Assembly (NCBI GenBank): GCA_013425325.1
Contig: JACCLL010000085.1
Location: forward strand, 1 to 39,392
Direction of reading: 5' to 3'
Length of the DNA: 39,392 nucleotides
Origin: Candidatus Micrarchaeota archaeon
Lineage (GTDB): Archaea > Micrarchaeota > Micrarchaeia > Norongarragalinales > UBA8480
In this document: positions 3-15,716 of the stretch, piece by piece
Layout of the letters: every line of letters starts with the position of its first letter
Position numbering within the stretch: the stretch's first letter is position 1
Notes under the pieces: model-generated
Seen by the model: the letters and a program-made list of their open reading frames with translations, nothing else
What the model was told of the DNA's origin: nothing
Databases searched by the model: none
Made by a program: the position numbers and the translations under genes

Positions 3-608
3 GGTGTTCCAGTCGAAAGTCGCGTTGGCCATCCTGCTTCCGAATTCGTCGGTTGCGTAAGCGCTTACCGTGGCGTTGTCGCCGGAGTTCAAGTAAGCCG
101 TTGAAGTGTTTATGTAAACGCGAGTCGGCTGGCGGGGAATGTGGATGTCGGGAACGCGAGCCTCTTCAAAACGGTCGTCGAAAAGGTCGGCGACGGGAGC
201 TATTGGCGAGCCTCCGCCGGAAGTGATTATAACGGACGCGGTTGCGTTCACTCTCCTGGCCGGCACAAGCTGCCAAGGCTCGGCGGAGAGGCTGGGCGTC
301 GAGGCGGTTACCGTAACGGTTCCCTCGCTCACGGCAGTCAGCAAGCCCTTTGAGGAAATGGTGGCCTGCGGGCCGGAAACGCTCCACGTTATTGAAGCGT
401 TTTTGACGAGTTTTCCATTAGAGTAGTAATAGGCGGTGAACTGCTGGGTTTCGCCAACGTCAAGAGATACGTTGATCGGAGAGAGCTTGATGTACTCCCT
501 CTTAACGTCTTTTACAACTGATTTCGTCACGAAAACGGCGCTCGCCTGAGCGGCGAGGCCGATTATCAAAACTAGTGCTACGAAAGTGAATACGTTCCGC
601 CAATTCAT
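3..608 (-). CDS. Secreted Ig-like (Big_2-type) domain surface protein, 3' end truncated by the window edge
   Basis: Not in the ORF track; translated by hand from ATG at 608. MNWRNVFTFVALVLIIGLAAQASA is a signal peptide with an AxA site. It is followed by LSPINVSLDVGETQQFTA...ITWSVSG..ATISSKGLLTAVSEGTVTVTAS (Big_2 pattern), and a second Ig-like unit begins near the edge. The frame is open to the edge. There is a GGTGG SD-like element and a TTTAAATA box upstream. Confidence 0.85.
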   Translation of the reverse strand, partial: MNWRNVFTFVALVLIIGLAAQASAVFVTKSVVKDVKREYIKLSPINVSLDVGETQQFTAYYYSNGKLVKNASITWSVSGPQATISSKGLLTAVSEGTVTVTASTPSLSAEPWQLVPARRVNATASVIITSGGGSPIAPVADLFDDRFEEARVPDIHIPRQPTRVYINTSTAYLNSGDNATVSAYATDEFGSRMANATFDWNT

Positions 609-650
609 TTCAATGCCCACCTTTGCCGGATAGTATTAGCGAAAAACTAG

Positions 651-658
651 TATTTAAA
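651..658 (-). promoter_or_regulatory. Putative TATA box for the Big_2 protein gene
   Basis: TTTAAATA on the minus strand, about 43 nt upstream of ATG 608. Confidence 0.5.
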
Positions 659-688
659 GTATGCACTCCGCAGTAGTTACAAACCTAA

Positions 689-1600
689 CTACTGTTTAGT
701 GGGAACCAGCGGCTTGCAGCCGTTTTCTTCCACTACCACGGTGGTTTCGCTTTGGGAAACCACGCCTCCCGTCGACTCGCGCAGGCCGTGATACGGATAG
801 ATTACTTCCTGACGGACCAAGTCGGCTACCGCCAGCTTGAATTGAGTAGAGGAAACGTCGAACTTGGGCGCCAGCCAGCGCACGGCGAAAGGCAGTAGCT
901 TGTACTCTTCTCCCGCGTACTCGGCTAGCGCGCGGCTTGACGGCAGGCGGACTTTCTTTTCGCCGACCATCGAGTAAATCTGCAGGAAATCCGAGTCGGA
1001 AACCCTTCCTTTTCCGGTTGTTGCAAAGGGTTCGACTGCAAAAAAGTCTCCTTCCTGCAGCACGTAGGAACCGGTTTCAATGTTGGGAATCTCTTCGCCC
1101 GCGTGCAAAACGTAGGGGAGGAGAGAGTGGCCGCACAAGTTGGAAATAGGCTCGTAGCCCCTTCCCCTTATTTCAAAAGCAATGGCTTTGCCGACTTCGC
1201 TGACTGAAACGCCTGCCTTTATTTTTGACAACGCCGCTTCGAGGGCCGCGTCGCTTGCTTCAATCAAGTCCGCGTGCTCTCCTGAAAAGTCGACGGTAAA
1301 CGCGACGTCGGCAATGCATCCTTCCACGTGGCAGCCGAAGTCCACTTTCAGCACGTCTTTCTCGCCCACGAAACAAACGTCGCCGGCGCAGGGAGTGAAG
1401 TGAGCGGCTTCGTCGTTGCGCGACAAGTTCGTCGGAAAAGCAGGTTGGGCGCCGAGTTCGCGGATTTTTGCCTCGATTTTCTCCGCTAACTCCAAGAGTT
1501 TCACGCCGGGCTTTGTTTCGGCTCGCGCGAACGCCTTGACGCCAGCGGCTATTTCGCCTGCTTTCAAGTAGTTTTTGAGTTCTTCCTCGAAGCCTTCCAT
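689..1600 (-). CDS. map: Methionine aminopeptidase, type II (archaeal)
   Basis: AFPTNLSRN..AAHFTP, KVDFGCHVEGCIADVAFT, NLCGHSL..YVLHAG, AVEPFATTG, SQSETT metal-ligand motifs, plus the type II helical insert. Confidence 0.97.
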   Translation of the reverse strand: MEGFEEELKNYLKAGEIAAGVKAFARAETKPGVKLLELAEKIEAKIRELGAQPAFPTNLSRNDEAAHFTPCAGDVCFVGEKDVLKVDFGCHVEGCIADVAFTVDFSGEHADLIEASDAALEAALSKIKAGVSVSEVGKAIAFEIRGRGYEPISNLCGHSLLPYVLHAGEEIPNIETGSYVLQEGDFFAVEPFATTGKGRVSDSDFLQIYSMVGEKKVRLPSSRALAEYAGEEYKLLPFAVRWLAPKFDVSSTQFKLAVADLVRQEVIYPYHGLRESTGGVVSQSETTVVVEENGCKPLVPTKQ

Positions 1601-1623
1601 GCAAGGTTTTTCGTCGGCGCTTC

Positions 1624-1631
1624 AATAAAAA
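1624..1631 (-). promoter_or_regulatory. Putative TATA box for map (likely leaderless transcript)
   Basis: TTTTTATT on the minus strand about 24 nt upstream of ATG 1600; no SD. Confidence 0.45.
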
Positions 1632-1640
1632 GCAGTAGCG

Positions 1641-4052
1641 TCACCAGTCGCCGAGTCCCTTCTGCGTTCCCTTGGTCTTCAGGTCTTCGGCGTCGACGCC
1701 AAGCGCCCCGAGTATTTTCAGCACCGCCGGAAGCACTTGGTTGTTTACGTAGTAGTCGGCGTCGTAGTCTTTCGCGAGTTCGATGGGCTGGGCTTTTTCG
1801 GAAATGCTTTTGCCAGAGCGGGTAATCACGTAGCCTATGGTTGAGTACTCGCCGTAAGGCAAACCAGCTTCCTGGGCTTTCTGCAGCGCCGACACTTCGG
1901 GGCTCATTATTTCGTATGCCTTTATTTTTTTCCTGACTTGAGTGTAGATGACGCAGTCTTCCAAAGGAGTTTTTCCGCTCTTGAGTTCTACAATGACTTT
2001 CAAAACCATTTCCTTCGCCTTCTTGACGTCGCCTTCCTTCAACAGCACTTCCAACACGCTGCGCTGCAGCCTGCGGGCAACGCGGCTCCAATCGCGTCGA
2101 ACGAGTTCGAATCCGCGTATCTTTATTTTCCCGTCCCGGTTGATCAACGCGTATTTCTTTTTCGCTCCGGCGTCGCCTTGTTTCTTGGAAACGAATATTC
2201 CGCGGGGGTAAAAGTCCTCCAACTCGAGTTCCATGCGCTCCGGAAGCAGTGAATTGACGGATTTCCTGAATTCTTCTATCTTCTTTTCCTCGCCCGGCTT
2301 GAACTGCAGCAACGCCGAGTCGGTGTCGGCGTACAACACTTTGAACCCCGCCTTTTCGGCTTGCTCAATAGCCTGCTTGATGTAGTGCCGCGCCCAGGCG
2401 GTAGTGCTTTCCGCGCATTCGCGCGAGTACCAGCGAGCGCGTGCATAGCCGAGGAAACCGTAGTAACTGTTTGCTAAAATCTTAAGTCCCCACTGGCGTG
2501 CGTACAACTGCTTGTACTCGTTGCTTTCCTTCGGCGTTTTCTTCATTTGCGCCTGCACCGCGCGGCGCGCGTCAATTATTTCTTCAAGCGTAGTGGGAAC
2601 CAGTCCCTTTATTTTGGAACAAAACTTGTGGCCCTGCGGCGAAACGTGCGCTTCCTTCGAGCAACAATCGCAGTTCAAAGCAAACGGGTCTATGTTGTGG
2701 GAAATGATTATCGACGGATACATTGACTTGAAGTCGAGCATGGCCAGGTTCTCGTAAACCCCGGCTTCCGGAGTTTTTACGTACGCTCCTTCAATCGGGT
2801 TCTGCTGACGGGCCTGAACTTCCGGCTCTTTGGGCTTGTTTGGAATGACTTCGCCGCGCTCGAACGAACGCCGCATCAACAGGCTCTCGACCAACTGTCC
2901 GGTAGTGCTGCGCGAGGTGTCGAAAAGCGTTTCGCCCGACAAGCGCGACAACTCGACTTCCAAGGAAAGAGTATGCTGCGCCAGCTCCAGGCACGCGACC
3001 GAGTCGTGCAAGTTGTATTTCGCCAGGTGTTCTAACGCAGCTCCGCCCGCGTCCCACGCCTTGTGGATTTCAAGCTTGTTTATGTCCGTCTTCTGCTTGC
3101 CGAGTATTTCCGCGTAAGCGTGGCCGAGAGTCATGCGGGGCAACCTCACCGCCCCCACGGTGTCGAGAAAATCTACTACCGGGTAGACGTCGTAGTGGAT
3201 TCTTCCCGGAACGCGGGTTACCGGACGGATTCCGGCTTGACGAGTTCGCAGGTTGGACAATACCCTTCCCGGGTAGAAAGACGCGTGGATTTTCTTGGAC
3301 CGCTCGCGCAAGTAAGGCAAGTCAAAGGCGTCGCCGTTGTACGAGCAAAGCAAGTCCACTTTCTTTTCGCGCAGCAGTTCGCAGAACCGCTCAATAGCCG
3401 CTTTTTCCGAAGGCACTGTTTCGACGAAGTCGGCGGAAAACTTTTTGGAGTAAGAGATAACCATCGGGGAATCTCCAGGCGAAGCGGCTGAAATCATTAT
3501 CACCGGGTCTTTCGCAGGGTTTGGGGCGTTGGCGGGAGTGTAGACTTCAATGTCAAACGCAAGAGTGCTGAACTCCGGCTGCGCAGGCGATTCAATGGGT
3601 TTTATCGACTTGATCATGCGGCCGTCCAACTCGACTTCGCACAGCGAGCACGGAAAGAGTCCGTTGTCTATCAGAAAACGTTTGGCGAAGGAAATGCGGT
3701 GTTCGTAACTCTGGCCGAATTCCTTCGTCGCCTCGTGCAGCTTCGGCACGTGCAACGGATCCTGCGCAAACACTTTCAAGAGCTGTACGCGCTTGCGGCC
3801 GATGACGCGCTCGACTTCTTCAACGGAAGTCGCGCCGAATTCCTTTCCCCGATCGCGGACTTTCAGGGAAACAATTTTTTTGGCCACTGCCTTGAAGTCG
3901 CCTTTGGGCAGCAGGTAGTAGTAGGGCTTGAAGGCGTTGTCGTAGGCGGGGAAGCTGCGCTTCGTCTTCTCGTCTTTCAGGAAAAGCCGCAGGGCGTGCT
4001 TTCCCCTGAGCGAAGTGCTTTCGACGTCCAGGAGGAAAGCGCGTGTTTTCAT
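1641..4052 (-). CDS. polB: DNA polymerase family B (archaeal PolB3-type) with 3'-5' exonuclease
   Basis: ExoI FDIEVY, ExoII YNGDAFDLPYL, ExoIII YNLHD, motif A DFKSMYPSII, motif B KILANSYYG, motif C YADTDS, KKKY, RGFELVRRDWS, and C-terminal PIP box QKGLGDW. Start is ATG 4052 (alternative 4061). No intein. Confidence 0.97.
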   Translation of the reverse strand: MKTRAFLLDVESTSLRGKHALRLFLKDEKTKRSFPAYDNAFKPYYYLLPKGDFKAVAKKIVSLKVRDRGKEFGATSVEEVERVIGRKRVQLLKVFAQDPLHVPKLHEATKEFGQSYEHRISFAKRFLIDNGLFPCSLCEVELDGRMIKSIKPIESPAQPEFSTLAFDIEVYTPANAPNPAKDPVIMISAASPGDSPMVISYSKKFSADFVETVPSEKAAIERFCELLREKKVDLLCSYNGDAFDLPYLRERSKKIHASFYPGRVLSNLRTRQAGIRPVTRVPGRIHYDVYPVVDFLDTVGAVRLPRMTLGHAYAEILGKQKTDINKLEIHKAWDAGGAALEHLAKYNLHDSVACLELAQHTLSLEVELSRLSGETLFDTSRSTTGQLVESLLMRRSFERGEVIPNKPKEPEVQARQQNPIEGAYVKTPEAGVYENLAMLDFKSMYPSIIISHNIDPFALNCDCCSKEAHVSPQGHKFCSKIKGLVPTTLEEIIDARRAVQAQMKKTPKESNEYKQLYARQWGLKILANSYYGFLGYARARWYSRECAESTTAWARHYIKQAIEQAEKAGFKVLYADTDSALLQFKPGEEKKIEEFRKSVNSLLPERMELELEDFYPRGIFVSKKQGDAGAKKKYALINRDGKIKIRGFELVRRDWSRVARRLQRSVLEVLLKEGDVKKAKEMVLKVIVELKSGKTPLEDCVIYTQVRKKIKAYEIMSPEVSALQKAQEAGLPYGEYSTIGYVITRSGKSISEKAQPIELAKDYDADYYVNNQVLPAVLKILGALGVDAEDLKTKGTQKGLGDW

Positions 4053-4100
4053 GCAACGCATTAGGGGAAACGCGGATTAAATCGTTTGCCGCAAGCCTTC

Positions 4101-4115
4101 GAAAGGGTTTAATAA
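4101..4115 (+). promoter_or_regulatory. BRE + TATA box for the coiled-coil gene at 4148
   Basis: GAAAGGG followed by TTTAATAA; GGTGA SD just upstream of ATG 4148. Confidence 0.55.
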
Positions 4116-4147
4116 TTGGCCAAGGTGGTTTCTGCGGTGAAACAATA

Positions 4148-4531
4148 ATGCCCGAGCCAATACGTCCTTTGGATGCAATAAAAGCGGACATGCGGACGCT
4201 CGACTCCAAAATCAACTTGATTGCCCAGAAAATCCGCATGATGGAAAAAAACGAGGAAGTCATCGGCAGGACAATGGTCGCGCTGAACGAAAAAATCAAG
4301 AAACTCGAGGAAGGCGGGGCAAGGACCGCGGCCGGAGCCGCCAAGGCAGGCGAGTCAAGCGCGGACATGGAGTCGCTGAAAGAACAGCTGAAAGCCTTGG
4401 AAGAAAAAGTAGAGGCTGCTCACTCGCAGTTACTTGAATTAAAGTACGTAATCGACTCGATCAACCCCTTGGAGTACGCTTCGCTCGACCAAGTAAAGGA
4501 ACTCCTGGAAGAAAAACTGGGCAAAAAGTAG
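4148..4531 (+). CDS. Coiled-coil hypothetical protein (127 aa)
   Basis: Start placed at ATG 4148 (SD GGTGA) rather than the ORF-track 4043, which overlaps polB. Two heptad-rich helices are separated by an Ala/Gly linker; C-terminal LKYVIDSINPLEY motif. Confidence 0.85.
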   Translation: MPEPIRPLDAIKADMRTLDSKINLIAQKIRMMEKNEEVIGRTMVALNEKIKKLEEGGARTAAGAAKAGESSADMESLKEQLKALEEKVEAAHSQLLELKYVIDSINPLEYASLDQVKELLEEKLGKK

Positions 4532-4534
4532 CGA

Positions 4535-6253
4535 CTATATTTTTTCGACTGTCAACGACCCTTCCTCAACCGGCTCTTCCGGAGCGGGCGCCGCGGGCTT
4601 CTCCTCTTTCTTCTCTTCAACAGCCTTTCTGCCGAAGCCGAACAGGGACTTTTTCTGCGGAGCAGGCTGTGGCGCCGGCGCGGTTGGCTTAGGCACCGGC
4701 GAAGGCAGCATCTGCTGCGCGACCGGCTTTTGCTGAAGCGCTTGCAAAGCGGACGGGGACTGAACAGGCGCCGCGGGAGCCGCAACGACTGCAACTGCCT
4801 CCGTGCAAGCGGAGTACGCAGGGCGGAGAGTGAAACGCGTCTGGCGTTCTCCTGCTTCGGCTCCTATTGCCGCTCCGTCGACTGCCTCGAACCTTACGTT
4901 GAAGTCGCCGAGCTTCTGCAAGTCCACCTCGTGCTGCGCGTGAACAACCATTCCAACTCCCTGTTTCTTGTACTTTGAGACGACCATTGCCGCCTCGTGC
5001 GCGATTTGCTCGGCATCCTCCTCGAACGCCAAAACCAGCGAAAGCGACGTCGTCGGAGGAACGGGAATCGACTCTATTATAGTCGCGATGAGCATGCGCT
5101 GTATTTCAATAGGATACTTCTTCATGCTCAGCATGAAGACTTTGCCTATCGCGTCGCGCCACGGCGTAGCCAGGTCCGCCGAAATGTTTTTGGCGAAAAG
5201 CGAGGGATAGATTTTCTGCAGCACCAGCAGAGTGCGCACCGCCCGCTTGATGTTGAAGAGAGTGACCGCCTTTGTTTCGCGCATTGAAGACAATTCAGTG
5301 ATTACGTCCGACAGAGAGAACAGCGAAGCGCGCTTCGAGTCGTAAGCCGCCTTGATTGGTTCGGCCACCTCGCTTCCGGTCAAGCCGAAGGCGCGGAGGA
5401 AGACGTCGGAATCCATTTTGCTCATGTCAACGTACAGTCCTTCGCCTAAGTCGAACGCCTTGAACGGAAATCCAGTCGGAGTTCCAGAAATGCCGAATTC
5501 GGCGAAGTGCGACGCGTCCTTGTTCGGCAAGGCAAATCCCTTGAACGACTCGTGAGCATCGAAAATCAGTACGGGAACGCTGTTCTGCAGCGCGCCCTCG
5601 AGCAAAAGGTGCATCAAGTGCAGCCTTGACTCGCGGTTTCCGCCGGTTATCGCAGCGGAGTATAGCGACTCTAGTTTCACTTCAAAGTCTTTTTTCTCGC
5701 GGTCCAGCCCGAGCATGAGCTTCGGAATGCGGAAGGCAGTTTCCACTCCCGTGCCCAACGGCCCTCCGCCGCCGATTGAAGTGTATGAAAACAGCGTAAA
5801 GGGGTCGCCAAGCAGCACCTGGGCTCTTGCGTCGTCGACTGCGCTCAAGTCCTGTATCTTGAATCCGTAAGCGGCGGCAGTGTCTTTCGTCAGAGAAGTT
5901 ATTCCCTCAAGTTCCAAGTGCTGTTTCTTAATCATTTCAACAAGCGCGTCCTGCGAGTAAGGCGCGTACTCCGGCGTTCCTCCCACCAACAAGTAGCGGC
6001 CCGCGTTTTCCTTGGAGTATTTTTCCACCAACGTGACTTCGCGTTTTTGGGCCTGCATGAAGCGCGCCAAGTCGCCTTCCACGTAAAAGATTTTCTTGAG
6101 AAGCATTACCACGCCGGTAATCTTGTCCTCCTGTTTTTCGAACACGAGGAGTAAAACAAGTTTTTCGGGGTTTTGGTAGATGGCCATGGGGTACTTGCCC
6201 CACTGGGCGCTGACCAGCCGAGTCCAAGGCCCGAAGGGCAAATCTAGTTCCAT
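4535..6253 (-). CDS. HerA/FtsK/VirB4-superfamily (DUF87-like) protein with degenerate, probably inactive ATPase motifs
   Basis: LG..., AAITGGNRESR at the Walker A position, VPVLIFDAHESF (HerA strand-2 hhhhD.HGEY), LVLAFEEDAE at the Walker B position, and KYKKQGVGMVVHAQHEVDL (cf. RKYGhGhhhASQRPSDL). It has an extra N-terminal domain and a Pro/Ala/Lys-rich C-terminal tail. Confidence 0.75.
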   Translation of the reverse strand: MELDLPFGPWTRLVSAQWGKYPMAIYQNPEKLVLLLVFEKQEDKITGVVMLLKKIFYVEGDLARFMQAQKREVTLVEKYSKENAGRYLLVGGTPEYAPYSQDALVEMIKKQHLELEGITSLTKDTAAAYGFKIQDLSAVDDARAQVLLGDPFTLFSYTSIGGGGPLGTGVETAFRIPKLMLGLDREKKDFEVKLESLYSAAITGGNRESRLHLMHLLLEGALQNSVPVLIFDAHESFKGFALPNKDASHFAEFGISGTPTGFPFKAFDLGEGLYVDMSKMDSDVFLRAFGLTGSEVAEPIKAAYDSKRASLFSLSDVITELSSMRETKAVTLFNIKRAVRTLLVLQKIYPSLFAKNISADLATPWRDAIGKVFMLSMKKYPIEIQRMLIATIIESIPVPPTTSLSLVLAFEEDAEQIAHEAAMVVSKYKKQGVGMVVHAQHEVDLQKLGDFNVRFEAVDGAAIGAEAGERQTRFTLRPAYSACTEAVAVVAAPAAPVQSPSALQALQQKPVAQQMLPSPVPKPTAPAPQPAPQKKSLFGFGRKAVEEKKEEKPAAPAPEEPVEEGSLTVEKI

Positions 6254-6298
6254 TGCAAAGCCACTTTCCTGCGTTTAAGAAACACTACTTGCGTTGTC

Positions 6299-6340
6299 AA
6301 TAAATAGGTTGCGGGCTTTGCCGCAAAGCAGGTTTAAAAA
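6299..6340. promoter_or_regulatory. Divergent promoter pair between the HerA-like gene and the 145-aa gene
   Basis: Minus-strand TATTTATT at 6299-6306. Plus-strand TTTAAAAA at 6333-6340, about 23 nt before ATG 6363 (leaderless spacing). Confidence 0.5.
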
Positions 6341-6362
6341 CAGCTTGCAGTAATTAGTTTCG

Positions 6363-6800
6363 ATGGACGTAAAACTCATTGTTCGCCAAATGAAGGCAAG
6401 GGGACTCAGCGAAGACGAAATAAAGAAAAACCTCGAGGCACTTGGAGTCCCGAACCCGGACGAAGTGTACGCGCAGGCAGTCGAACGCGCGACCGAAGTG
6501 CAGCTCGAACCCGCTCCAAAGGAAGAAGAAAAACCGGCCAAGGAAGCTCCAGAGGAAGCGCCTTTTGTCATGACGAGCATAAGCGGCGAAGAGGAAAAGT
6601 CTGTTGAAGTCGGCAAAAAAGCCGCATCGTCAATGCCCGCAGAGGCAGCGGAACTCATGACCGCCATGCCGAAAACCGTTTCTTCAGACGTTGGCGCGAA
6701 AATGGATGAAACCATTGCGTTGCTGAAGGCGCTTCAGGACGTGAACAAAAAGATTCTCGAAACAAACCGGGAAATGCTCATGCGCCTGAAAATGCAGTGA
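6363..6800 (+). CDS. Hypothetical protein: N-terminal small helical domain, acidic linker, C-terminal coiled coil
   Basis: MKARGLSEDEIKKNLEALG helix-turn pattern; E/P/K-rich linker; heptad C-terminus (MDETIALLKALQDVNKKIL). Has its own TATA box. Confidence 0.85.
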   Translation: MDVKLIVRQMKARGLSEDEIKKNLEALGVPNPDEVYAQAVERATEVQLEPAPKEEEKPAKEAPEEAPFVMTSISGEEEKSVEVGKKAASSMPAEAAELMTAMPKTVSSDVGAKMDETIALLKALQDVNKKILETNREMLMRLKMQ

Positions 6801-6813
6801 GCAAAAGAAGTAC

Positions 6814-7158
6814 TCACTTTTTTTTGGGTTCGTAGTGTATTACATACTCGGGAACGTTTTTTTTCTTCTCAGGCTCTTTGCCGAAAGAATTCCAGAAAAA
6901 GCCGAACAACTGGCCCAAGAAATTCAAGAACAAGCCGAAGCGCTCGCCCAACTCTTTTTCGCCGCCGAACGCCTTCTTCTCGGTTCCGCCCAAGCCCGAA
7001 GGCGCGTGCTGCGACGCGGAAGGCCGTGCTCCGCCGGAGCTTTCAAGCAACAGTGCCACCGCAAGGGCGGCTATAACTAAAAACGCGAAGAACACCTGCC
7101 CCGAGTACAGGAAGAAAAGCGCAACCCCAAGCAGAATCAGCGTAATGAATGCGTTCAA
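6814..7158 (-). CDS. Small membrane protein (2 N-terminal TM helices plus an amphipathic helix)
   Basis: Hydrophobic hairpin at aa 3-39; Phe-rich amphipathic FGLFLNFLGQLFGFFW. ATGA overlap with the upstream gene. Confidence 0.8.
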   Translation of the reverse strand: MNAFITLILLGVALFFLYSGQVFFAFLVIAALAVALLLESSGGARPSASQHAPSGLGGTEKKAFGGEKELGERFGLFLNFLGQLFGFFWNSFGKEPEKKKNVPEYVIHYEPKKK

Positions 7159-7436
7159 GCATACCCGCCTCCGTAGCCTTCCGGCTTTGCAGTGTCTCCC
7201 TTAATCAACAAAACAAGCACGATAAACAAGCCTATTAAGTAAACCCACGGGGGAACGCCGCTGCCGCCGAAGTAAACCAGTGCAACCAGCACTCCGCCGA
7301 CTGCCGCCGCCAGAAGCAGGAGCTTGCTCTTGGCAATCAACAGCAGCACGACAAGCAGGCCTACGGCAACCCACCACAAGCCGCTTTGGACCGCTATTAT
7401 CATGAGAACGATTATGAACAGGAAAGTAAAGTCCAA
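7155..7436 (-). CDS. Small polytopic membrane protein (93 aa)
   Basis: Almost entirely hydrophobic (3-4 TM segments), ending in GYGGGYA. TTG start 10 nt after the upstream stop, with a GAGG-like SD. Confidence 0.8.
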   Translation of the reverse strand: MDFTFLFIIVLMIIAVQSGLWWVAVGLLVVLLLIAKSKLLLLAAAVGGVLVALVYFGGSGVPPWVYLIGLFIVLVLLIKGDTAKPEGYGGGYA

Positions 7437-7446
7437 GTTTTTTGCC

Positions 7447-7647
7447 TCACCATCTCAACAAAAAGAACTCCTTTATTCCCACCAAGTTGATCCACATCAT
7501 GCCAAGCAAGTCGTCCGCGCGGACTGCAAAGACCAACAAGGCGCATAACGCTAATATAGAAAGCGTCAAGTCTACGAACTCGGCGAACACGGCGACGGCA
7601 ATAGCCGCAATCAGGAAAGTGCTCCAGCCAAACACGCCTTCAGCCAT
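7447..7647 (-). CDS. Small membrane protein (66 aa)
   Basis: Hydrophobic hairpin; tightly packed in the operon (6-nt gap from the upstream stop); GTGA SD-like element. Confidence 0.75.
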   Translation of the reverse strand: MAEGVFGWSTFLIAAIAVAVFAEFVDLTLSILALCALLVFAVRADDLLGMMWINLVGIKEFFLLRW

Positions 7648-7653
7648 TTTGCA

Positions 7654-7917
7654 TCACTTGAGCCACTCGCCGGGCTTCATTACGGTAAACATTCCGTACA
7701 TTACGAGCACGACGAACAACAAGTACTTGAACCAGTCGTAGGGAATCACGAGTAAAAACATTACCAGCGCGGTTACGAGAAGCGCGAGAAGAGGGTGGCG
7801 GATGAAGTTGTTGGTAAGCAGGTTGTACAACGTAAAGAAAATCAGTATGAGCGCGATCAAGCCGAAGGCTTCCCAGAAGTCAGCGTAGAACAACACTGGA
7901 AGCAGCGAGAACGGCAT
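7654..7917 (-). CDS. Small membrane protein (87 aa), paralogue of 8365-8628
   Basis: Three hydrophobic segments; motif YN-x9-PLLALLVTALVMFLLVIPYDW. TATA-like TTTAAAT at 7942-7948. Confidence 0.8.
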   Translation of the reverse strand: MPFSLLPVLFYADFWEAFGLIALILIFFTLYNLLTNNFIRHPLLALLVTALVMFLLVIPYDWFKYLLFVVLVMYGMFTVMKPGEWLK

Positions 7918-7941
7918 GAATACGTTTTTGGAATTCCGTGG

Positions 7942-7948
7942 ATTTAAA
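7942..7948 (-). promoter_or_regulatory. Putative internal TATA box within the membrane-protein cluster
   Basis: TTTAAAT on the minus strand about 25 nt upstream of ATG 7917, in a 41-nt gap. Confidence 0.4.
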
Positions 7949-7958
7949 GCCTGCTGCT

Positions 7959-8342
7959 CTAACGCCGTTTCGCCGGCTTTTTCCCGATTTTGCCGGAAGG
8001 AAAGAACTTGACGAACTCTTTTTCAAGCTCTTTCGACACTTTCCGAGTTCCCAGGAAGAATTCGCCTTCCAGGAGAACCGCGAACAACAGCGCGCCAAGC
8101 ATCAGCCCGCCCGCGAACCACGAGAAAACCCGTTCCCCGAGCATCATCCCCGGCTGCAGGTCGGAAACCACCGCGCCGTTGTACTGCGGGTATTCAGTAC
8201 TCAGGTGCTGCCACACGAAAAACGAAATGACTACCGCAGCCAGGATTACGGCGAGCCGCCACTTCGCGTTAAACCAATTTGCGCGCTGCAGGCTCGCGAA
8301 GTGGTACAAGTCGTAGAAACCTATCTTCTGTTTTTCATCCAT
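7959..8342 (-). CDS. Membrane protein with 2 TM helices and a basic C-terminus (127 aa)
   Basis: TM1 LAVILAAVVISFFVW, TM2 FSWFAGGLMLGALLFAVLL; GAGGGAG SD upstream of ATG 8342. Confidence 0.8.
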   Translation of the reverse strand: MDEKQKIGFYDLYHFASLQRANWFNAKWRLAVILAAVVISFFVWQHLSTEYPQYNGAVVSDLQPGMMLGERVFSWFAGGLMLGALLFAVLLEGEFFLGTRKVSKELEKEFVKFFPSGKIGKKPAKRR

Positions 8343-8364
8343 TCAAAACAACTCCCTCAAAAAC

Positions 8365-8628
8365 TCACTTCGGCCTGGCGCGGAACAGGAAAGGCGCGAA
8401 AACGGCGCCCATGAACAGCAAGCCGGAGAACATTATGATTGAAACAAACCAGCCGAGCAACCCCGCCCACGGGTAGACTATCACGAGGTAGTAAATGAGG
8501 ATTGCGGCGACGACGAGCGTGAGAACAGGAGAAAACGCCAGGTGTTCCTGCGCCCAGTTGTAGTAATAGTAGGCCATGAGGAAGATAATTATCCACCACA
8601 CCCACTGCAGTTCTTCCAAGAAAAGCAT
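8365..8628 (-). CDS. Small membrane protein (87 aa), paralogue of 7654-7917
   Basis: True start is ATG 8628 (MLFLEELQW), 5 nt after the upstream stop. Motif YN-x9-PVLTLVVAAILIYYLVIVYPW. Confidence 0.8.
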   Translation of the reverse strand: MLFLEELQWVWWIIIFLMAYYYYNWAQEHLAFSPVLTLVVAAILIYYLVIVYPWAGLLGWFVSIIMFSGLLFMGAVFAPFLFRARPK

Positions 8629-8633
8629 TAGTT

Positions 8634-9101
8634 TTACCCCATTCTGCGCCGCATCTGCTGTTCCTGCATCTGGCCGGTCATCTGCTGCGCCCTCATCTGC
8701 TTTGCGCTGTACTGCTGCATGAAATTCATTTCGCTTGCGCCCAATGTCTCGCCCTGCGCAACCTTCTGCTCCAAGCGCATGAACTCGTTCTGCTCCAAGT
8801 GAAACCTTCCGGAACCGATTCCGAACACGCCCAGCAACGGCTCTAGACCGAACATTACGAGCATCTGCAGCTGGTTGCCGAATACCACGAACAGGAAGAA
8901 ACACAGCATGAGAATGGTTACGGAGACGGCGTGCACGAAAATAAAGTACGCGGAAACGATTACGGCCATTCCGAAAATGATTTGGCTGTCGCGGAACATC
9001 AAGTACAACTGAAACAAGAGGTAAGAGAAAACGAGTATGCGCACTACGAACCACAAGTCGGCGGTCACTTGAAGCAACGGCAGTGCGGCTAATTCAATCA
9101 A
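8634..9101 (-). CDS. Membrane protein (about 3 TM) with a Gln/Met-rich C-terminal tail
   Basis: Hydrophobic N-terminal half, then QQYSAKQMRAQQMTGQMQEQQMRRRMG. TTG 9101 is preferred over 9125 because the TATA box at 9138-9145 puts the TSS near 9115. Confidence 0.8.
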   Translation of the reverse strand: MIELAALPLLQVTADLWFVVRILVFSYLLFQLYLMFRDSQIIFGMAVIVSAYFIFVHAVSVTILMLCFFLFVVFGNQLQMLVMFGLEPLLGVFGIGSGRFHLEQNEFMRLEQKVAQGETLGASEMNFMQQYSAKQMRAQQMTGQMQEQQMRRRMG

Positions 9102-9137
9102 TCGAATGCACTCTCGCACAAACAAACAGTCACGCGG

Positions 9138-9200
9138 TTAAAAAACGTTTTCAGCGCCTTCCTGCGAAGCAATTAAAAGCCGCGAAAAAGAACTATTTAA
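9138..9200. promoter_or_regulatory. Divergent BRE/TATA promoters for the membrane cluster (-) and the four-gene operon (+)
   Basis: Minus strand: GAAAACG+TTTTTTAA (9138-9152). Plus strand: GAAAAAGAAC+TATTTAA (9184-9200), then a GGAGGA element at 9205-9210 before ATG 9222. Confidence 0.55.
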
Positions 9201-9221
9201 CCGGGGAGGAACGAGAGTAAA

Positions 9222-10445
9222 ATGCCGCTGAAAATGCTTGTCCGAAGACCGGAAACCTTCAGGACGGAAGCAGTCGAAACAAACGTCGCCGTGCACGCGC
9301 TGACGGAAGGAAAAACTCTTTGGGGCAGAAAAGAAAAAAGACTGCAGCAGATAGGCGGCGACCTGGCCGACATGGTGAACGCGCCTTCTCCGGCAGTCGA
9401 GCACTGGCTTCACCACGTGTTCAAGAACTCCGGTTACTTCCAAGACCACCAGGCTAAAAACCTGGCCGGGTACTTGGCTTTCGACAGAAACTTGCTTGGT
9501 AGAGTAGCGCAAGACGGAGTAGTACACCAAGCGATTCTCGAGCAAACGCGCGCCATTCCGGCAAGCAGCAAAGTGTGGGGAAAAGAACCGCGCATAAAAG
9601 TGCCCGCGACAACCGAGGCAATAGTCAAGCTAAAGTCACCCCGCGTCGCAGACGCGTTAATAAAAGCGCTGGAAGCAAGGCAAGACGGCAGGGAATTACT
9701 TGAAGAAATACGCCGCGCGCCAGCCGAGCCAGAGCACTTTCCGGTCCCCGAAGAACCCGGGGAAAAAGAAGGCGGAGCCGAAGAAGAACCCGCAGGAAAA
9801 GGCGGCAAGCCTCCCTACGGCGTAGAAGAAGGCGAAGAACCACGCGGCGCAAAGGAAGAGCCAGAAAAACCAGCGGAAAAACAAGTTTCTTTACGCGACC
9901 TCATTTGGAAGCACGCGCTCGCCCACCACATTCAACAAAAAGACTCTTCAACGCTTCCGGCGCTGGGCAAAGTCAACGCCAGTCTCCAAGAAAAAAGGCT
10001 TACCGAACTGCTCTTGCGCTCACAGATGTTCGTAAACGAAATGTTTCCGGCGTTGAGGCCGCACAACGTGGAAAACCTGTTTAACGCGGCAGTGCACGCG
10101 GAAGACCACGGCGCGTTCATGAAAAAACTCGGCCAAATGATTGAAGCCAGCACCGGCGAAGACGGCGAACAATACGTTGAAGACCACCGGTTTGAAGGAA
10201 AGCTGCACGAAGACCACAAAACCATTTCCATACTCAACGCCCACAAGCTCAAAGACGAGACGGGAAGGGAGTTGACGGAAAAACAGAAGAACGCCCACGC
10301 GTTTCAGCTGCTCGCAAAATATTTTTCGCACGCTCTGCCGGAGGAAAGGGCGGCGTTGCACAATTACTTGCTCGGCGAAGCCACGGACCAAAACAAGGCC
10401 GCGGCACAAGTCCTGCGTAAGAAAATAGTTGTTTCAGAGGAATGA
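9222..10445 (+). CDS. Hypothetical protein with an acidic/Pro linker and a 188-aa C-terminal domain shared with the next gene
   Basis: 407-aa ORF with its own promoter and SD. The C-terminal domain aligns without gaps to that of 10470-12569. Confidence 0.9.
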   Translation: MPLKMLVRRPETFRTEAVETNVAVHALTEGKTLWGRKEKRLQQIGGDLADMVNAPSPAVEHWLHHVFKNSGYFQDHQAKNLAGYLAFDRNLLGRVAQDGVVHQAILEQTRAIPASSKVWGKEPRIKVPATTEAIVKLKSPRVADALIKALEARQDGRELLEEIRRAPAEPEHFPVPEEPGEKEGGAEEEPAGKGGKPPYGVEEGEEPRGAKEEPEKPAEKQVSLRDLIWKHALAHHIQQKDSSTLPALGKVNASLQEKRLTELLLRSQMFVNEMFPALRPHNVENLFNAAVHAEDHGAFMKKLGQMIEASTGEDGEQYVEDHRFEGKLHEDHKTISILNAHKLKDETGRELTEKQKNAHAFQLLAKYFSHALPEERAALHNYLLGEATDQNKAAAQVLRKKIVVSEE

Positions 10446-12566
10446 TTGTCTAGAGGGAGGTAGAAGTGCTTGACATGGTATGAAACGGAGAAAGGAATCT
10501 ACAAGAAAATGACTGGCAGCTCTCCGCTGGCTCCGCGCGACATTAAAACCGCGGTCTTGAACATCGGAACTCAAGTGGCGGGCGTTGCGCTCGCGGGAGC
10601 GCTTTCGGGAGGAATCACTCTTCCAGCGGCAATGGTTGCCGCAAACGGCTTGCGCCGCATAGACGAGTCAACCGTTTCAATGCTGCCCGCGCGCCGAACG
10701 CGCGACATGGTCGACCACGCGCTGGTAGGCAATTTGACTCCCCGCGACGTCGTCTTGAGCAAGCAAACCAGGCAAACGCTCGACCGCGTTTTCGGAAGCC
10801 ACGACGTGTTCCACATCTGGCAGACGCACGGCCCGGCCGCGGCGGACTCCCTCGCCGTAAGACGCAAGTACACCCTCAGAAGCCAGCAGGACCCCACTGT
10901 TCCCGCGTCCGAAAGAACAGTCGGCGAACGAGCGTACTCGGAAGCCGTGAGCGCGCTCGGAATAGTGGCTCTGCACGACTGGGCCCGAAACCGCGTTGTT
11001 CCGCACATGGGCGGCCCCGTAGCAGGAGCGTCGCACTACAAAACCATAAAGGCAATGACGCCGCACCAGCGAACTGAGTTCTGGAGAAACCTCGACACTC
11101 ACTTGACTCCTGAAGAAAAAGAGATTTACCACAACCTGTGGATCACTAAAATGCAGTCCGGCGCGCAGTTCAGCGGAAGCATGAGCAAAATGATCGGCGG
11201 CTTCCTCGCAATCGGAGCCGGCTCGTGGCTGGAAGGCAAGTTCGGAGTAAACGCCCACACTCACCAGATTTCAATGCAGCATAACCTGAACCAGCTCTCG
11301 CAGGCGGCGCAGGACTTCAGAAGCGCGGCGGACGCAATGCAAAACCTGCACATCGACCCCACTTCGCACACGCCGGTTTTGACCGGCGCGGAAGTAAAGC
11401 TGCAGGGAATAGTCGGACGAGTCGACCCTGAGTTGGTTGCCCGCATCGACGCAGGCGCAGGACAACTTGCTTCCCACGCCGCGCTTCAAGCGCCGGCGAA
11501 CATGGGTTTGCTCGTGCAGTCGCTGCACATGCAAGGCGTTCCCGTGGACGTCGCGCTCGGCTACGCTCTGAACAAAGCCGGGCCCGAAGCAGTGGCGAAT
11601 TACTTGAGCCAGGCCGCAAACCACTTGGACGGAATTACGGCAACGCTTTCATCCGGCGGAATAATGACTCCCGCGCAGTTCGCTTCGCTTCCAGCAGCAT
11701 TGGTTCCACTTATTGCAAGCTACTCGCGCAAGCAATTCCCGCAGTGGCCCCGCGCGCCCGAGGGAACCGGGCCGTACGGCGCGCCCTACGGAAAAACGCC
11801 TTACGGAGCAGGACCGTACGGCGCCCCCGAAGGAAAAGGGCCTTACGGCGCCGAACCAAAAGGCGGTGCTTACGGCGTTTCCGAAGAAGAACCGACGGCG
11901 CCGAAAGGCGGAAAGAAAGCGAAGCCGAAAGCACCCAAGCCAAAGACAACAAAAGAACCCTTGGAAGCAGAGGAAGGCGAAGAAACCGAGGCAGCCGGCG
12001 GAAGGGAAGTCACTTTACGCAACTTCCTGTGGGAATTGGTGCGCAACCACCACTTGACGGAAGCCGACACTTCAACGCTTCCCGCGCTGGGCAAAGTCAA
12101 TTCCAGCCAGCAGGAACAACGGCTTGCAGAGTTATTGGACGGCTCGCTGCGCTTCCTCTACACAATCCACCCGTCGATGAGACAGCACTCCATTGAAACG
12201 TTCTTCAACAAAGCCGGTTCCGCGGAAGGCCATGAGCAGTTCATCGCAAACATGAAGGCCGCGATAAACACGAGCGTAGGCGAAGACCCGGAGCAATACC
12301 TTGACCAACACCACTTCAAAGGAGAACTGCACGACCGCCACAAAATAGTCTCGATAGTAAACCTGCACCAACTGCGGGACAACAAGGAAACCCTCTTGCC
12401 CCAAGAACAACGCGACGCCTTCTCTTTCCACTACCTGTCAAAGCTGTTGAACAACGCCCTGCCCGAAGAAAGGACGGCGTTCGTCAACTTCATGCTCGAC
12501 CACGCGCAGGACTCGCACGACGAACTCAAGCGCGCTCTGCGCACGAAACTCAAGATAGCCCCGGCG
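9879..12566 (+). repeat. Duplicated 188-codon domain (9879-10442 and 12003-12566)
   Basis: Ungapped protein alignment, about 42% identity by hand count. Includes a 30/31-nt DNA match (9946-9976 vs 12070-12100) encoding STLPALGKVN. Confidence 0.9.
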
Positions 12567-12569
12567 TAA
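10470..12569 (+). CDS. Hypothetical protein with Gly/Ala-rich hydrophobic helices, PYG repeats and the shared C-terminal domain
   Basis: TTG start with a GGAGGT SD 8 nt upstream. Hydrophobic segments VAGVALAGALSGGITLPAAMVAA and MIGGFLAIGAGSW; six (P/A)YG units; paralogous C-terminus. Confidence 0.9.
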   Translation: MTWYETEKGIYKKMTGSSPLAPRDIKTAVLNIGTQVAGVALAGALSGGITLPAAMVAANGLRRIDESTVSMLPARRTRDMVDHALVGNLTPRDVVLSKQTRQTLDRVFGSHDVFHIWQTHGPAAADSLAVRRKYTLRSQQDPTVPASERTVGERAYSEAVSALGIVALHDWARNRVVPHMGGPVAGASHYKTIKAMTPHQRTEFWRNLDTHLTPEEKEIYHNLWITKMQSGAQFSGSMSKMIGGFLAIGAGSWLEGKFGVNAHTHQISMQHNLNQLSQAAQDFRSAADAMQNLHIDPTSHTPVLTGAEVKLQGIVGRVDPELVARIDAGAGQLASHAALQAPANMGLLVQSLHMQGVPVDVALGYALNKAGPEAVANYLSQAANHLDGITATLSSGGIMTPAQFASLPAALVPLIASYSRKQFPQWPRAPEGTGPYGAPYGKTPYGAGPYGAPEGKGPYGAEPKGGAYGVSEEEPTAPKGGKKAKPKAPKPKTTKEPLEAEEGEETEAAGGREVTLRNFLWELVRNHHLTEADTSTLPALGKVNSSQQEQRLAELLDGSLRFLYTIHPSMRQHSIETFFNKAGSAEGHEQFIANMKAAINTSVGEDPEQYLDQHHFKGELHDRHKIVSIVNLHQLRDNKETLLPQEQRDAFSFHYLSKLLNNALPEERTAFVNFMLDHAQDSHDELKRALRTKLKIAPA
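11769..11879 (+). repeat. Tandem imperfect GPYGA peptide repeat (6 units)
   Basis: GPYGAPYGKTPYGAGPYGAPEGKGPYGAEPKGGAYGV; TACGG recurs six times in the DNA. Confidence 0.85.
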
Positions 12570-12579
12570 GATGGTTTGA

Positions 12580-14331
12580 ATGGCTGAAAGGCTCCGCGTG
12601 AGGCCCCGCGGCCGGCTGCGCCTCGGCGGCGCGCCCGAAGCCCAGCGGGAAGAAAAAGAAGAGCGGAAGCCCCCTGTTTTTGCCCCAAAGCCGTCTTTAG
12701 GCAAGCCAAGCGGACTAAGGCTGCCAGTCGAAAGGCCCCGCCTGCGAATCCCGGTTCCAAAACCCGCTGAAGAAAAGCCCGTTGAAAAACCCGCGGCGAA
12801 ACCGATTGAACCGGCGGCCGAAGAAAAACCGCTGGCGCCAACTCCAGCCCCAAAAAAGCCGGTTGCTCTTTTTCCCGAGTCCAATCACGTGGTCGTAATT
12901 CCAACGCGCAACCGCCCGGGAAGACTGGCGACGCTGCTTGAAAGTATTCTTGAGAACACCAAGAAATTCGGTTACGACAAGCGCATCAAAATAGTGGTGG
13001 TCGACGACTCGGACGCGGCGGAGGCGGCGAGAAACCAGGCAAGGGTAAGCACGCTCGAGAAAAAGTCCGGCGGACGGCTCGAGCTCCACTACTACGACAA
13101 GTCGGACCAACAGCGTTTGGTGAAATCGCTGGAAGAACAACTCGCGTTGTCGGGAATAGACCCCAAGGAATTCATTTACGAGGAAGGAAACCGCAAGGGA
13201 TTCGGCGGAGTGCGCAACATGGCGTCGTTGATTGCGCAAAGACATGCCAAGACCGACAGCATCCTCACTTTCCTGGACGACGACACCATGCTGAAGAACC
13301 TAGTGTTCAAAGGCGGGGAACACAAGCTGGCGTACACAAAGAGCTTCTTCCACGAGCTCGACAAAACTTTTGCCGCTCCCGACGTGAACATGATCGGCGG
13401 CGAAGTGACGGGCGACGGAAGCGGCGGAATGTTCTACCGCGTTTCCGACGGCTTGAGTTACTTGGAAAAGTTTTTCCTCAACGCCCGCGAAAAAAGCCCG
13501 CGTTCTTCCTCGGACGACGCCCAGAGGCAAATGATTGGAACCGTCGCGTTGCCCGGGCTTTCAATGAAAGACGGGCTCAAGAAAATGGGCAGCCTCACGG
13601 CACAACTTCCTTCAGGAAGAGACCGCTTCAGGGTAATCACTACCGACGTCCTCTCCAAGCAATACAAGTTCGACAAGAAAACCGTGCACCGGACGGACTT
13701 GGTTCCCGGCGCGAACGTCAGCCTCCGCGCCAGCGTAGTAAACCAGATTCCCTACTTCCAGTACAAGGGCCTGCGCGGGGAAGACGTGATAATGAGCTGC
13801 GCGGTCAACTCACTTCTCGGAGGAGTGTACATAATCAACAACCCCGTCGCGCACTTCAGGGACCAGGCAAACCGCGACGTCGTCCGCGAGTCAATTGCGG
13901 ACATGACGTGCCACCCAGTAATAGAAGCGCTGAGGGAAGCAGCTGGCGGCAAGGGAAGCTTCGTCGAAGCACTAAAAGCGTATTCTACTGACAAGGCAAA
14001 GCCACACGTCGAAGGCATTCTTTACTCCTACCCCGGCAACCGCATAAGCATCTGGCAGAACAGGCTGCCGATGCTCAAGCAAATAATTCACGGGGAGAAA
14101 AGCGCGTGGTGGCTCAAGCCCGAGCACGCGAACTCAATGAAGAAAATCAATTCATTCCTGCAGCACCTGGAAACACGCCTGCCAACAGCAAGAAGGGAAT
14201 TGCATGACAGCATTTCCGCCGACAAAGTCGCGCAGGCGCTGCGCAAGTACGGCAGAATGCTTGAAACCTGGCGCCAGGTAACCGAAGCGGCCCGGTTGGC
14301 AGAATTGAAGGAACGGAGGCGCGCGGCTTGA
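12580..14331 (+). CDS. Glycosyltransferase family 2 (GT-A fold) with a ~100-aa Arg/Pro/Lys-rich N-terminal extension
   Basis: VVVIPTRNRP, IVVVDDS, GFGGVRN, FLDDD (DxD), GANVS, RGED motifs. Confidence 0.88.
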   Translation: MAERLRVRPRGRLRLGGAPEAQREEKEERKPPVFAPKPSLGKPSGLRLPVERPRLRIPVPKPAEEKPVEKPAAKPIEPAAEEKPLAPTPAPKKPVALFPESNHVVVIPTRNRPGRLATLLESILENTKKFGYDKRIKIVVVDDSDAAEAARNQARVSTLEKKSGGRLELHYYDKSDQQRLVKSLEEQLALSGIDPKEFIYEEGNRKGFGGVRNMASLIAQRHAKTDSILTFLDDDTMLKNLVFKGGEHKLAYTKSFFHELDKTFAAPDVNMIGGEVTGDGSGGMFYRVSDGLSYLEKFFLNAREKSPRSSSDDAQRQMIGTVALPGLSMKDGLKKMGSLTAQLPSGRDRFRVITTDVLSKQYKFDKKTVHRTDLVPGANVSLRASVVNQIPYFQYKGLRGEDVIMSCAVNSLLGGVYIINNPVAHFRDQANRDVVRESIADMTCHPVIEALREAAGGKGSFVEALKAYSTDKAKPHVEGILYSYPGNRISIWQNRLPMLKQIIHGEKSAWWLKPEHANSMKKINSFLQHLETRLPTARRELHDSISADKVAQALRKYGRMLETWRQVTEAARLAELKERRRAA

Positions 14332-15680: not shown

Positions 15681-15716
15681 AAAAAAGAGGAAGTTGAGCG
15701 GGAAAAAGACCCGCTC
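15679..15716 (-). terminator. Hairpin plus oligo-T terminator between convergent genes
   Basis: 7-bp stem GAGCGGG/CCCGCTC (15696-15702/15710-15716). On the minus strand it is followed by a T8 tract (15679-15686), just after the stop of 15727-16194. Confidence 0.5.

Follow-up and report, generated by a model that had tools for sequence, protein, structure and literature searches.

Ten consecutive genes in a 39,392-nucleotide contig of a Candidatus Micrarchaeota archaeon (GenBank JACCLL010000085.1, positions 1 to 39,392, referred to below as the window) form a real, conserved, lineage-specific set that is a single-copy core in an order of Micrarchaeia that is probably Norongarragalinales. Located at positions 4148 to 9125, these genes encode a protein with the fold of the HerA and VirB4 ATPases (here designated atp), two small helical proteins (cc1 and cc2), and seven small membrane proteins (m1 to m7, 66 to 163 aa), none of which reaches the cut-off of any Pfam or NCBIfam family. 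The entire atp family has a HerA/VirB4-type core without the P-loop lysine, which points to the loss of motor function in a family that apparently stays under selection. An earlier note, made from the letters of the window alone, had singled out the same ten uncharacterized genes and viewed them as one linked machine for host contact. Its parts list is borne out by the analysis described below; the linkage of all ten parts and the role in host contact are not. The explanation favored here, albeit tentatively, is a small membrane complex that carries a non-motor HerA-like platform, coupled to it through cc2.

A HerA/VirB4-type protein that lacks the P-loop lysine

The AlphaFold2 model of atp (pLDDT 72.5) consists of an N-terminal, beta-rich alpha/beta domain (residues 1 to ∼160), a core of the P-loop type into which a helical bundle is inserted (residues 173 to 486), and a disordered tail rich in Pro, Ala, Gln, and Lys (residues 487 to 572). 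The HerA/VirB4 fold proposed in the earlier note is well supported by structural comparisons. In a Foldseek search, atp retrieved the HerA protein of Sulfolobus (4d2i_B, E = 1.8e-10), and VIA-align matched its core to HerA from D. radiodurans (7wrx; Z 20.9, root mean square deviation 4.1 over 304 aa), Sulfolobus (4d2i; Z 20.8), and Thermococcus (9X1M; Z 18.5), as well as to VirB4 (4ag6; Z 20.6, root mean square deviation 3.4 over 275 aa) and the C-terminal part of DndH (Z 20.5), with lower scores for TrwB (15.9), EssC (13.5), and FtsK (12.9). At the sequence level, HerA is the only family that is convincingly reached by the atp profile (Sulfolobus HerA 4d2i among PDB sequences, E = 2.8e-7, in the Walker B/sensor region). 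The match of atp to the Pfam DUF87 domain (PF01935) is confined to residues 213 to 247 and scores 13.7 bits against the cut-off of 23.2 (E = 0.07).

The P-loop position in the atp protein from the window reads GGNRESR, and the combination of Lys with Ser or Thr is found there in none of the 149 full-length family representatives, in agreement with the earlier suggestion that this ATPase looks dead. The 11 matches to the Walker A pattern GxxxxGK[ST] detected elsewhere in the family sequences are all located away from the P-loop. Other positions are nearly invariant, including Glu219 and Gly182 (149/149 each), Arg340 (148/149), and Arg477 (147/149). At the Walker B site, Glu411-Glu412 of the window's atp (in the AFEED motif) align with the Glu-Glu pair of HerA when the alignment is read by eye; across the family, position 411 is occupied by Pro in 64, Glu in 43, and Asp in 12 of the 149 sequences.

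When folded alone, the N-terminal domain of atp is modeled with a pLDDT of 85.3, and a Foldseek search with this model returned nothing at E ≤0.001. HerA proteins carry an N-terminal HAS barrel, and that domain does not appear among the VIA-align matches listed for the N-terminal domain of atp. Judging by their titles, 9 of the 15 top matches are type III secretion chaperones (8 entries) or YbjN (1 entry), with Z scores of 5.6 to 7.3; the best are AvrPphF ORF1 (Z 7.3), STM2138 (Z 7.0), and AmyR (Z 6.9), each aligned over approximately 100 to 111 residues. The chaperone/YbjN theme of this model-based comparison is consistent, though it stays at the noise level.

The genome that contains the window is estimated to be 88.5% complete, and this limit applies to all genes reported here as not found in it. 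A search for an active paralogous ATPase, proposed in the earlier note, found neither a HerA/VirB4-type enzyme nor a second atp-like open reading frame nor an above-cut-off match to DUF87. The NurA nuclease (PF09376) had no match at E ≤0.01.

Phyletic distribution

A word-indexed search with atp retrieved 12 homologs from sources labeled Micrarchaeota or Micrarchaeia, and an exhaustive profile search at E ≤0.001 expanded the family to 223 clusters at 50% identity. Taxon names were available for a few of the 20 cluster representatives and included Micrarchaeota, Norongarragalinales, and Diapherotrites; one further representative, labeled simply “archaeon,” is named “DUF87 domain-containing protein.”

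The distribution was examined in two samples, namely 251 genomes from the phylum (29 from the order of the window and 222 others, the latter including G198 and G029) and 61 genomes from that order. The order is probably Norongarragalinales, a name carried by one related locus and one representative. In the phylum sample, full-length atp was found in 27 of the 29 genomes inside the order, m7 in 28, and cc1 in all 29. Outside the order, m7 was found in none of the 222 genomes and cc1 gave a single weak match. Weak and partial matches to the atp profile were seen in 92 of the 222 (best E = 7.7e-20), and the six that were inspected proved to be ordinary HerA_C/DUF87/AAA_10 ATPases. The atp, m7, and cc1 profiles thus have no true match in the 222 other genomes of the phylum. 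Within the 61-genome sample, the five profiles used were detected in 55 (atp), 54 (m7), 56 (m4/m6), 60 (cc1), and 57 (cc2) genomes. All five were found together in 52 genomes, showing that the genes co-occur in relatives; the earlier note had proposed this check by synteny and profiling and had named a lack of co-occurrence as grounds for its refutation. The nine genomes that miss some profile are 61 to 90% complete. The genome that contains the window has a single match to every profile, except that the m4/m6 profile finds its two genes.

A midpoint-rooted tree of atp separates the clade of the window (support 0.98), which holds all 10 sampled genomes of the order, representing four families, from a larger clade B, which holds one protein labeled Diapherotrites along with metagenome loci and whose sampled representatives are 17 to 25% identical to the atp of the window. 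Of the 13 metagenome loci found for clade B, the five of at least 5.7 kb were examined. In all five, cc2 adjoins atp; in all four with sufficient flanks, small membrane genes, including m4/m6-profile matches, lie upstream of cc2, and cc1 is followed by polB, the gene for a family B DNA polymerase. The gene for methionine aminopeptidase (MAP) comes next in L022 and L024 and farther downstream in L028, and L022 again has seven small membrane genes. The second deep clade that keeps the gene order would be Diapherotrites/Iainarchaeota, as suggested by one NCBI label, the taxa of the ESM Atlas, and the metagenome contigs. No description of the family or of the gene cluster emerged from literature searches, and the main text of PMC12892359 does not contain the words HerA, secretion, ATPase, ATP synthase, pili, or “unknown function.”

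Organization of the locus and the small proteins

The ten genes occupy alternating strands in four transcription units (Table 1). The genes m7 to m1 form a tight minus-strand operon, in which the spacing ranges from a 4-base overlap to 41 bases. The gene for m6 is nested within a longer, 229-aa frame that starts with GTG, and m7 begins at residue 9 (base 9101) in its ESM Atlas record. Homologs of m1, m2, m4, m5, m6, and m7 are encoded in the same order in loci L002, L003, and L007, and all of these except m1 in L014, with identities of 26 to 83%. Because the homologs keep the same order in related loci, these small open reading frames are judged to be genuine genes. The exception to this conservation is m3, which matches only its counterpart in L002 (34% identity over 56 aa; pairwise E = 2e-6) and has no tblastn match in the other related loci. 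When the three intergenic regions of the window were compared by eye with those of three relatives, only ordinary A/T-rich TATA-like boxes of the TTTTTAAACC type were seen and no specific shared promoter motif. A search for RNA sequencing runs covering positions 4148 to 9101 listed none.

Table 1. Genes of the conserved set and their surroundings in the window (lengths in amino acids)
Feature	Positions	Strand	Length	Description
polB	1641-4061	-		Family B DNA polymerase (Pfam DNA_pol_B, E = 8.6e-56)
cc1	4148-4531	+	127	Start set by alignment
atp	4535-6253	-	572	HerA/VirB4-fold pseudo-ATPase
cc2	6363-6800	+	145	Head-to-head with atp, tail-to-tail with m1
m1	6814-7158	-	114	N-terminal hydrophobic hairpin and C-terminal amphipathic segment
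m2	7155-7436	-	93	Membrane protein; conserved N-terminal MD(F/S)FT motif, Gly/Tyr-rich C-terminal tail
m3	7447-7647	-	66	Membrane protein, the least conserved among m1 to m7
m4	7654-7917	-	87	Membrane protein, paralog of m6
m5	7959-8342	-	127	Two hydrophobic segments, basic C-terminal tail
m6	8365-8625	-	86	Paralog of m4; start set by homology
m7	8634-9101/9125	-	155/163	First gene of the operon
Divergent operon	9222-15680	+	407, 699, 583, 450	Two unnamed proteins, GT2, and GT4
Same genes with the following one	9222-17849	+	511 (last gene)	Last gene with sub-threshold FHA/YscD-like N terminus
Giant protein 1	18847-27693	-	2948	CarboxypepD_reg, Big_1, and other Ig-like domains
Giant protein 2	27743-36097	-	2784	CarboxypepD_reg, Big_1, and other Ig-like domains
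Open frame	36644-39391	-	at least 915	Runs off the window; no Pfam match

By Kyte-Doolittle hydropathy, each of the proteins m1 to m7 has at least one hydrophobic segment of membrane length, in keeping with the seven membrane proteins of the earlier note, and no such segment is present in atp, cc1, or cc2. The seven proteins represent six families, given that m4 and m6 are paralogs whose joint profile finds two copies in most genomes. Comparisons of the six alignments by hhalign (15 pairs) gave no indication that these families are related to each other, the best probabilities being 31% for m1-m2 and 19% for m4/m6-m7. In m7, the N-terminal two-thirds are hydrophobic, and the C-terminal tail is rich in Gln and Met. 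The Gly/Tyr-rich tail of m2 lengthens to 20 to 40 residues in clade B (counterparts in L022, L023, L026, and L028); low-complexity tails like those of m2 and m7 are unusual for membrane proteins so small.

Matches to known systems were sought for all these proteins. Neither m1 to m7 nor their clade-B counterparts in L022 and L026 have a Pfam hit, to the families of the type III secretion system (T3SS)/flagellar export gate or otherwise, and neither group has a cut-off-level match at E ≤0.1 in Pfam or NCBIfam to subunits of the Mnh/Mrp antiporter or another pump. Among PDB sequences, the m4/m6 and m7 profiles retrieve no pilin, VirB, or Ced/Ted chain, and the cc1 and cc2 profiles find nothing under E = 0.05. 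The earlier statement that no part of the set is recognizably Ced or Vir is therefore upheld in Pfam, NCBIfam, and PDB-sequence profile searches, which gave no Ced, Vir, Mrp, or export-gate match.

Of the two proteins described in the earlier note as coiled-coil proteins, both are small and helical, yet cc2 does not look like a long coiled coil: its alignment shows a helical domain of ∼40 aa at the N terminus, an acidic linker that varies, and one conserved helix at the C terminus, and it has no Pfam match. In cc1, a low-complexity linker connects two strongly conserved helical segments, with the invariant residues Asp19-Ser20-Lys21 and Ile105-Asn106-Pro107-Leu108, and only sub-threshold coiled-coil matches in Pfam. 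In the ESM Atlas, the neighbors of m7 and cc1 are Iainarchaeota clusters (0.89 to 0.91), and cc1 also has one FlaC_arch cluster at 0.80; both serve only as leads.

Gene-order conservation

Gene order was compared in the 61-genome sample, with two genes counted as adjacent when they are located on the same contig within 8 kb of each other and with the genomes that have both genes as the denominator. All counts are lower bounds because of the fragmentation of metagenome-assembled genomes. As a control, the unrelated pair polB-MAP was used; these genes follow cc1 on the minus strand and are adjacent in 25 of 57 genomes. Three links exceed this level: those between cc2 and the distal half of the operon (cc2-m4/m6 39/55, where m7-m4/m6 is 53/54), between cc2 and atp (32/55), and between cc1 and polB (39/58, of which 36 are within 1 kb, and 17/18 in family f3). 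By contrast, atp-m7 (22/52) and atp-cc1 (22/55) are no better kept than the control pair, because the latter is adjacent as often. Consequently, the earlier view of one linked machine was not upheld, and cc2 is the sole thread that joins atp to the membrane proteins.

Rearrangements in individual families illustrate this role of cc2. In family f2, the operon is split, with m7-m6-m5 at one site, m4-m2-m1-cc2 at another, and atp and cc1 elsewhere; there, cc2 remains near an m4/m6 gene in 10 of 11 genomes even though atp has moved away, and in G132 the m1 profile match adjoins m2, m4, and cc2. In family f4, a cc2-atp-cc1 trio is often found apart from the m operon (G253, G255, G259, and G262).

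The gene for cc1 forms a head-to-head pair with polB, with 86 bases between them (positions 4062 to 4147). The polB gene is not one of the ten, yet it is a conserved neighbor of cc1 and a member of the ancestral gene block. Because cc1 is transcribed divergently from polB, its membership in the ten-gene set is doubtful, and it more likely goes with polB; it could act as a partner of the B-family polymerase that is specific to this lineage, or be co-regulated with the enzyme. In eight genomes (G193, G251, G258, G142, G282, G254, G114, and G199), the polB match is split (query residues 1 to ∼581 and ∼574 to 806) within a single frame of approximately 1130 to 1280 aa, which resembles an intein-type insertion; the polB of the window has no such insertion.

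A proposed non-motor platform on a membrane complex

In the favored explanation, the seven mini-proteins of six families would assemble in the cytoplasmic membrane into a small hetero-oligomer. The atp protein, which is probably unable to bind ATP in the usual way, would dock on the cytoplasmic side of this complex and act as a platform rather than a motor, probably ring-shaped like its relatives. The cc2 protein would join the two, its N-terminal helical domain engaging one of them and its conserved C-terminal helix the other, and the putative chaperone/YbjN-like domain of atp could grip extended parts of partner proteins, for example the cc2 linker or the low-complexity tail of m2 or m7. The platform would then gate or organize the complex instead of pumping, the conceivable substrates being protein, DNA, lipid, or ions, and cc1 would more likely work with polB than with the complex.

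Such a function would have a precedent. Degenerate domains of the same superfamily in the type VII secretion proteins EssC and EccC lack catalytic activity and serve a membrane machine in regulation or docking. Similarity of atp to these domains is detectable (5fv0, Z 13.5; 4nh0, Z 13.2; profile E = 0.004), but they are fused to an active domain and transmembrane helices, whereas atp stands alone and no active domain has been found. The HerA translocases share with atp the P-loop-type core with its inserted helical bundle and a similar overall length. They differ from it in that Walker A is missing throughout the atp family, and the atp of the window scores below the DUF87 cut-off and has an N-terminal domain that gave no HerA match and, in the model, may resemble a secretion-chaperone/YbjN fold. 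Furthermore, archaeal HerA works with NurA, which was not found in this genome, and the neighbors of atp are membrane mini-proteins rather than nuclease or defense genes. Class I chaperones of type III secretion and YbjN, for their part, have no sequence similarity to the N-terminal domain of atp, which is fused to a P-loop core. As for the FliI/F1-type ATPases of T3SS and flagellar export, the core of atp matches HerA and VirB4, not F1 or FliI, among the VIA-align matches listed. The notion of a divergent ATP synthase was rejected, given this similarity to HerA/VirB4 and the failure to find the A/B subunit of an A/V-type ATP synthase (PF00006) in the genome.

Several observations weigh against the favored explanation. 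The control pair indicates that gene order alone says little here, and the block may be an ancestral arrangement that is decaying slowly. In loci L006 and L008 to L011, atp is found between aCPSF1-like and TFE-like genes, with no cc or m gene nearby. The atp protein has no hydrophobic segment of its own, and none of the four longer representatives that were examined is fused to a cc protein or a membrane protein, all of them having only N-terminal extensions or low-complexity C-terminal tails. A Z score of ∼7 for its N-terminal domain is the level that VIA-align reaches for models lacking a true relative, and the acidic pair kept at the Walker B site in the window's atp leaves room for some residual nucleotide-related function. 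The phyletic pattern shared by all the families amounts in effect to one or two evolutionary events. A predicted complex of atp (residues 1 to 490) with cc2 scored 0.15 and 0.20 against a mark of 0.32, which speaks neither for nor against the pairing.

Only slightly less probable is that the genes represent separate modules in an old shared neighborhood. The m operon, with or without cc2, would then encode an unrelated small membrane complex with a role in, for example, envelope, lipid, or ion homeostasis; the atp protein would be a soluble non-catalytic relative of HerA, for instance a scaffold for nucleic acids or proteins; and cc1 would be a PolB partner or a co-regulated protein. The adjacency of atp and m7 at the level of the polB-MAP control, the preference of cc1 for polB over atp, the solitary atp genes among housekeeping genes, and the four transcription units on alternating strands all fit this explanation. 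However, after independent rearrangements, cc2 is still found beside atp or beside the m4-m1 half-operon, all the families share an order-restricted, near-universal, single-copy pattern, and the order of m operon, cc2, atp, and cc1 recurs in the distant clade B.

A bolder version of the favored complex is a passive portal or gate, in which a nucleotide-free HerA-type ring would sit on a channel made of the seven mini-proteins and cc2 would be the rod that couples them. Norongarragalinales-like Micrarchaeia and Iainarchaeota would have inherited it as a core organelle, a previously unseen archaeal envelope machine through which macromolecules or lipids would be exchanged with other cells or the surroundings. 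This version is rather unlikely.

Alternative functions of the set

A conduit for DNA or protein of the Ced/Ted or type IV secretion system (T4SS) kind, which is close to what the earlier note proposed, appears unlikely. The m proteins would be channel- or pilin-like, the dead ring would be a docking collar, and the energy would come from another ATPase or the membrane potential. In the crenarchaeal system, CedB, a HerA/VirB4-type protein, is paired with CedA, CedA1, and CedA2, a combination with several membrane proteins of two to three helices that recalls the present set. The core fold of VirB4/TrwK is common to atp, which is about as close to VirB4 as to HerA, and the TrwK/VirB4 chains of R388 align across the N-terminal region of atp as well (residues 19 to 487, Z 15.5; N-terminal domain alone, Z 5.0). 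Nevertheless, the ATP site is dead here, and no active HerA/VirB4/VirD4-type paralog that could supply the energy was found in the genome. The sole secretion-type ATPase found is of the PilB/FlaI type (T2SSE) and is encoded with its T2SSF partner on another contig. In the Pfam and PDB-sequence profile searches, none of the m proteins could be assigned to a VirB, Ced, or Ted family or matched to a pilin, and judging by hydropathy, none looks polytopic like VirB6 or CedA. Unlike conjugation genes or a mobile or inducible system, this is a universal single-copy set of the chromosomal core in a stable housekeeping neighborhood. The lineage may also be little dependent on hosts, as argued for Norongarragalinales, its probable order, in PMC12892359.

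The gene for the PilB/FlaI-type ATPase (L001, positions 421 to 2220, contig C40 of the window's genome G000; T2SSE E = 1.1e-36) is followed by the T2SSF platform gene, and the N terminus of the protein shows a sub-threshold 4Fe-4S motif (Fer4_2, 22.1 versus 24.5 bits). In other orders of the class, loci L018 (positions 4431 to 7596) and L019 (positions 5294 to 7564) encode ordinary DUF87/AAA_10 ATPases of ∼477 aa directly downstream of a two-helix membrane protein of 259 to 277 aa, and L018 additionally encodes a 315-aa protein with seven helices; judging from these gene contents, an active VirB4/HerA-type membrane system may exist in the sister orders.

A tether for the chromosome or the replisome is quite improbable. 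In this reading, DNA would be clamped by a nucleotide-free HerA-like ring, which cc1 would link to PolB and which cc2 and the membrane proteins would anchor to the membrane. Such a tether would account for the fact that the nearest sequence relatives of atp are the HerA DNA translocases and for the conservation of polB and cc1 as neighbors in both deep clades, and the invariant arginines Arg340, Arg473, and Arg477 could contact DNA. Against it, the polB-MAP control shows that the neighborhood is simply stable, and atp-cc1 is the most often broken link of the ten-gene set. The genome also encodes two FtsZ proteins and SepF, so that ordinary division machinery exists; with these genes present and no Snf7 found, the possibility that the set replaces the division machinery was rejected. 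The least probable explanation by far is a remnant of a virus or plasmid, that is, a packaging-type FtsK/HerA ATPase with small membrane proteins, as known from membrane-containing viruses, that became fixed in the chromosome, a pairing similar to that at the packaging vertices of PRD1-like viruses: the set is single copy, nearly universal in the order, and located at a fixed housekeeping locus, its G+C content is 0.50 to 0.55 (over 4 to 9 kb) against 0.53 to 0.57 in the flanks, and no capsid, integrase, or repeat feature was found among the ten genes.

Genomic surroundings

The earlier note had placed the set next to a divergent operon of effector-like proteins and near giant surface proteins. 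The divergent operon exists, but its products are two unnamed proteins and the glycosyltransferases GT2 and GT4, and together with the gene that follows, they look closer to envelope glycosylation than to effectors. Three genes of this operon (d1 to d3) have no match in any of the 13 related loci. The giant proteins are likewise there, with only Ig-like and CarboxypepD_reg domains to characterize them. Because neither the operon nor the giant proteins are conserved neighbors of the set, the proposed context of host contact is left unsupported.

Giant proteins of a different kind were found in family f2. A 2912-aa protein in G142 combines Big_13, NPCBM_assoc, and FlgD_ig Ig-like repeats with a C-terminal DUF87/HerA P-loop domain (45 bits against the cut-off of 23.2). 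Such Ig/HerA giants are encoded in loci L034 (positions 150 to 8888, contig C14 of G142), L035 (positions 8723 to 12778, contig C57 of G173), and L036 (positions 14138 to 15871, contig C2 of G132), 6 to 8 kb from the m7-m6-m5 half-operon. Similar giant frames of 1306 to 5337 aa with weak matches to the atp profile were seen in G154, G119, G086, G178, G200, and G004. No Ig/HerA giant was found in the window's own genome.

Implications

The gene set adds six new families of membrane mini-proteins. The genomes of the DPANN archaea are tiny, and a single-copy set without a named family that is retained in nearly every genome of an order probably has a basic role. In atp, with its 223 clusters at 50% identity, there is a natural case of a HerA/FtsK-type protein that appears to have lost its P-loop long ago and to have stayed under strong selection, which makes the question of what this fold can do without ATP directly testable. 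If the parts are separate, the cc1-polB pair would be a lead to a lineage-specific polymerase partner. If they form one particle, it would constitute a novel structure of the cell envelope, in a group about whose cell biology very little is known.

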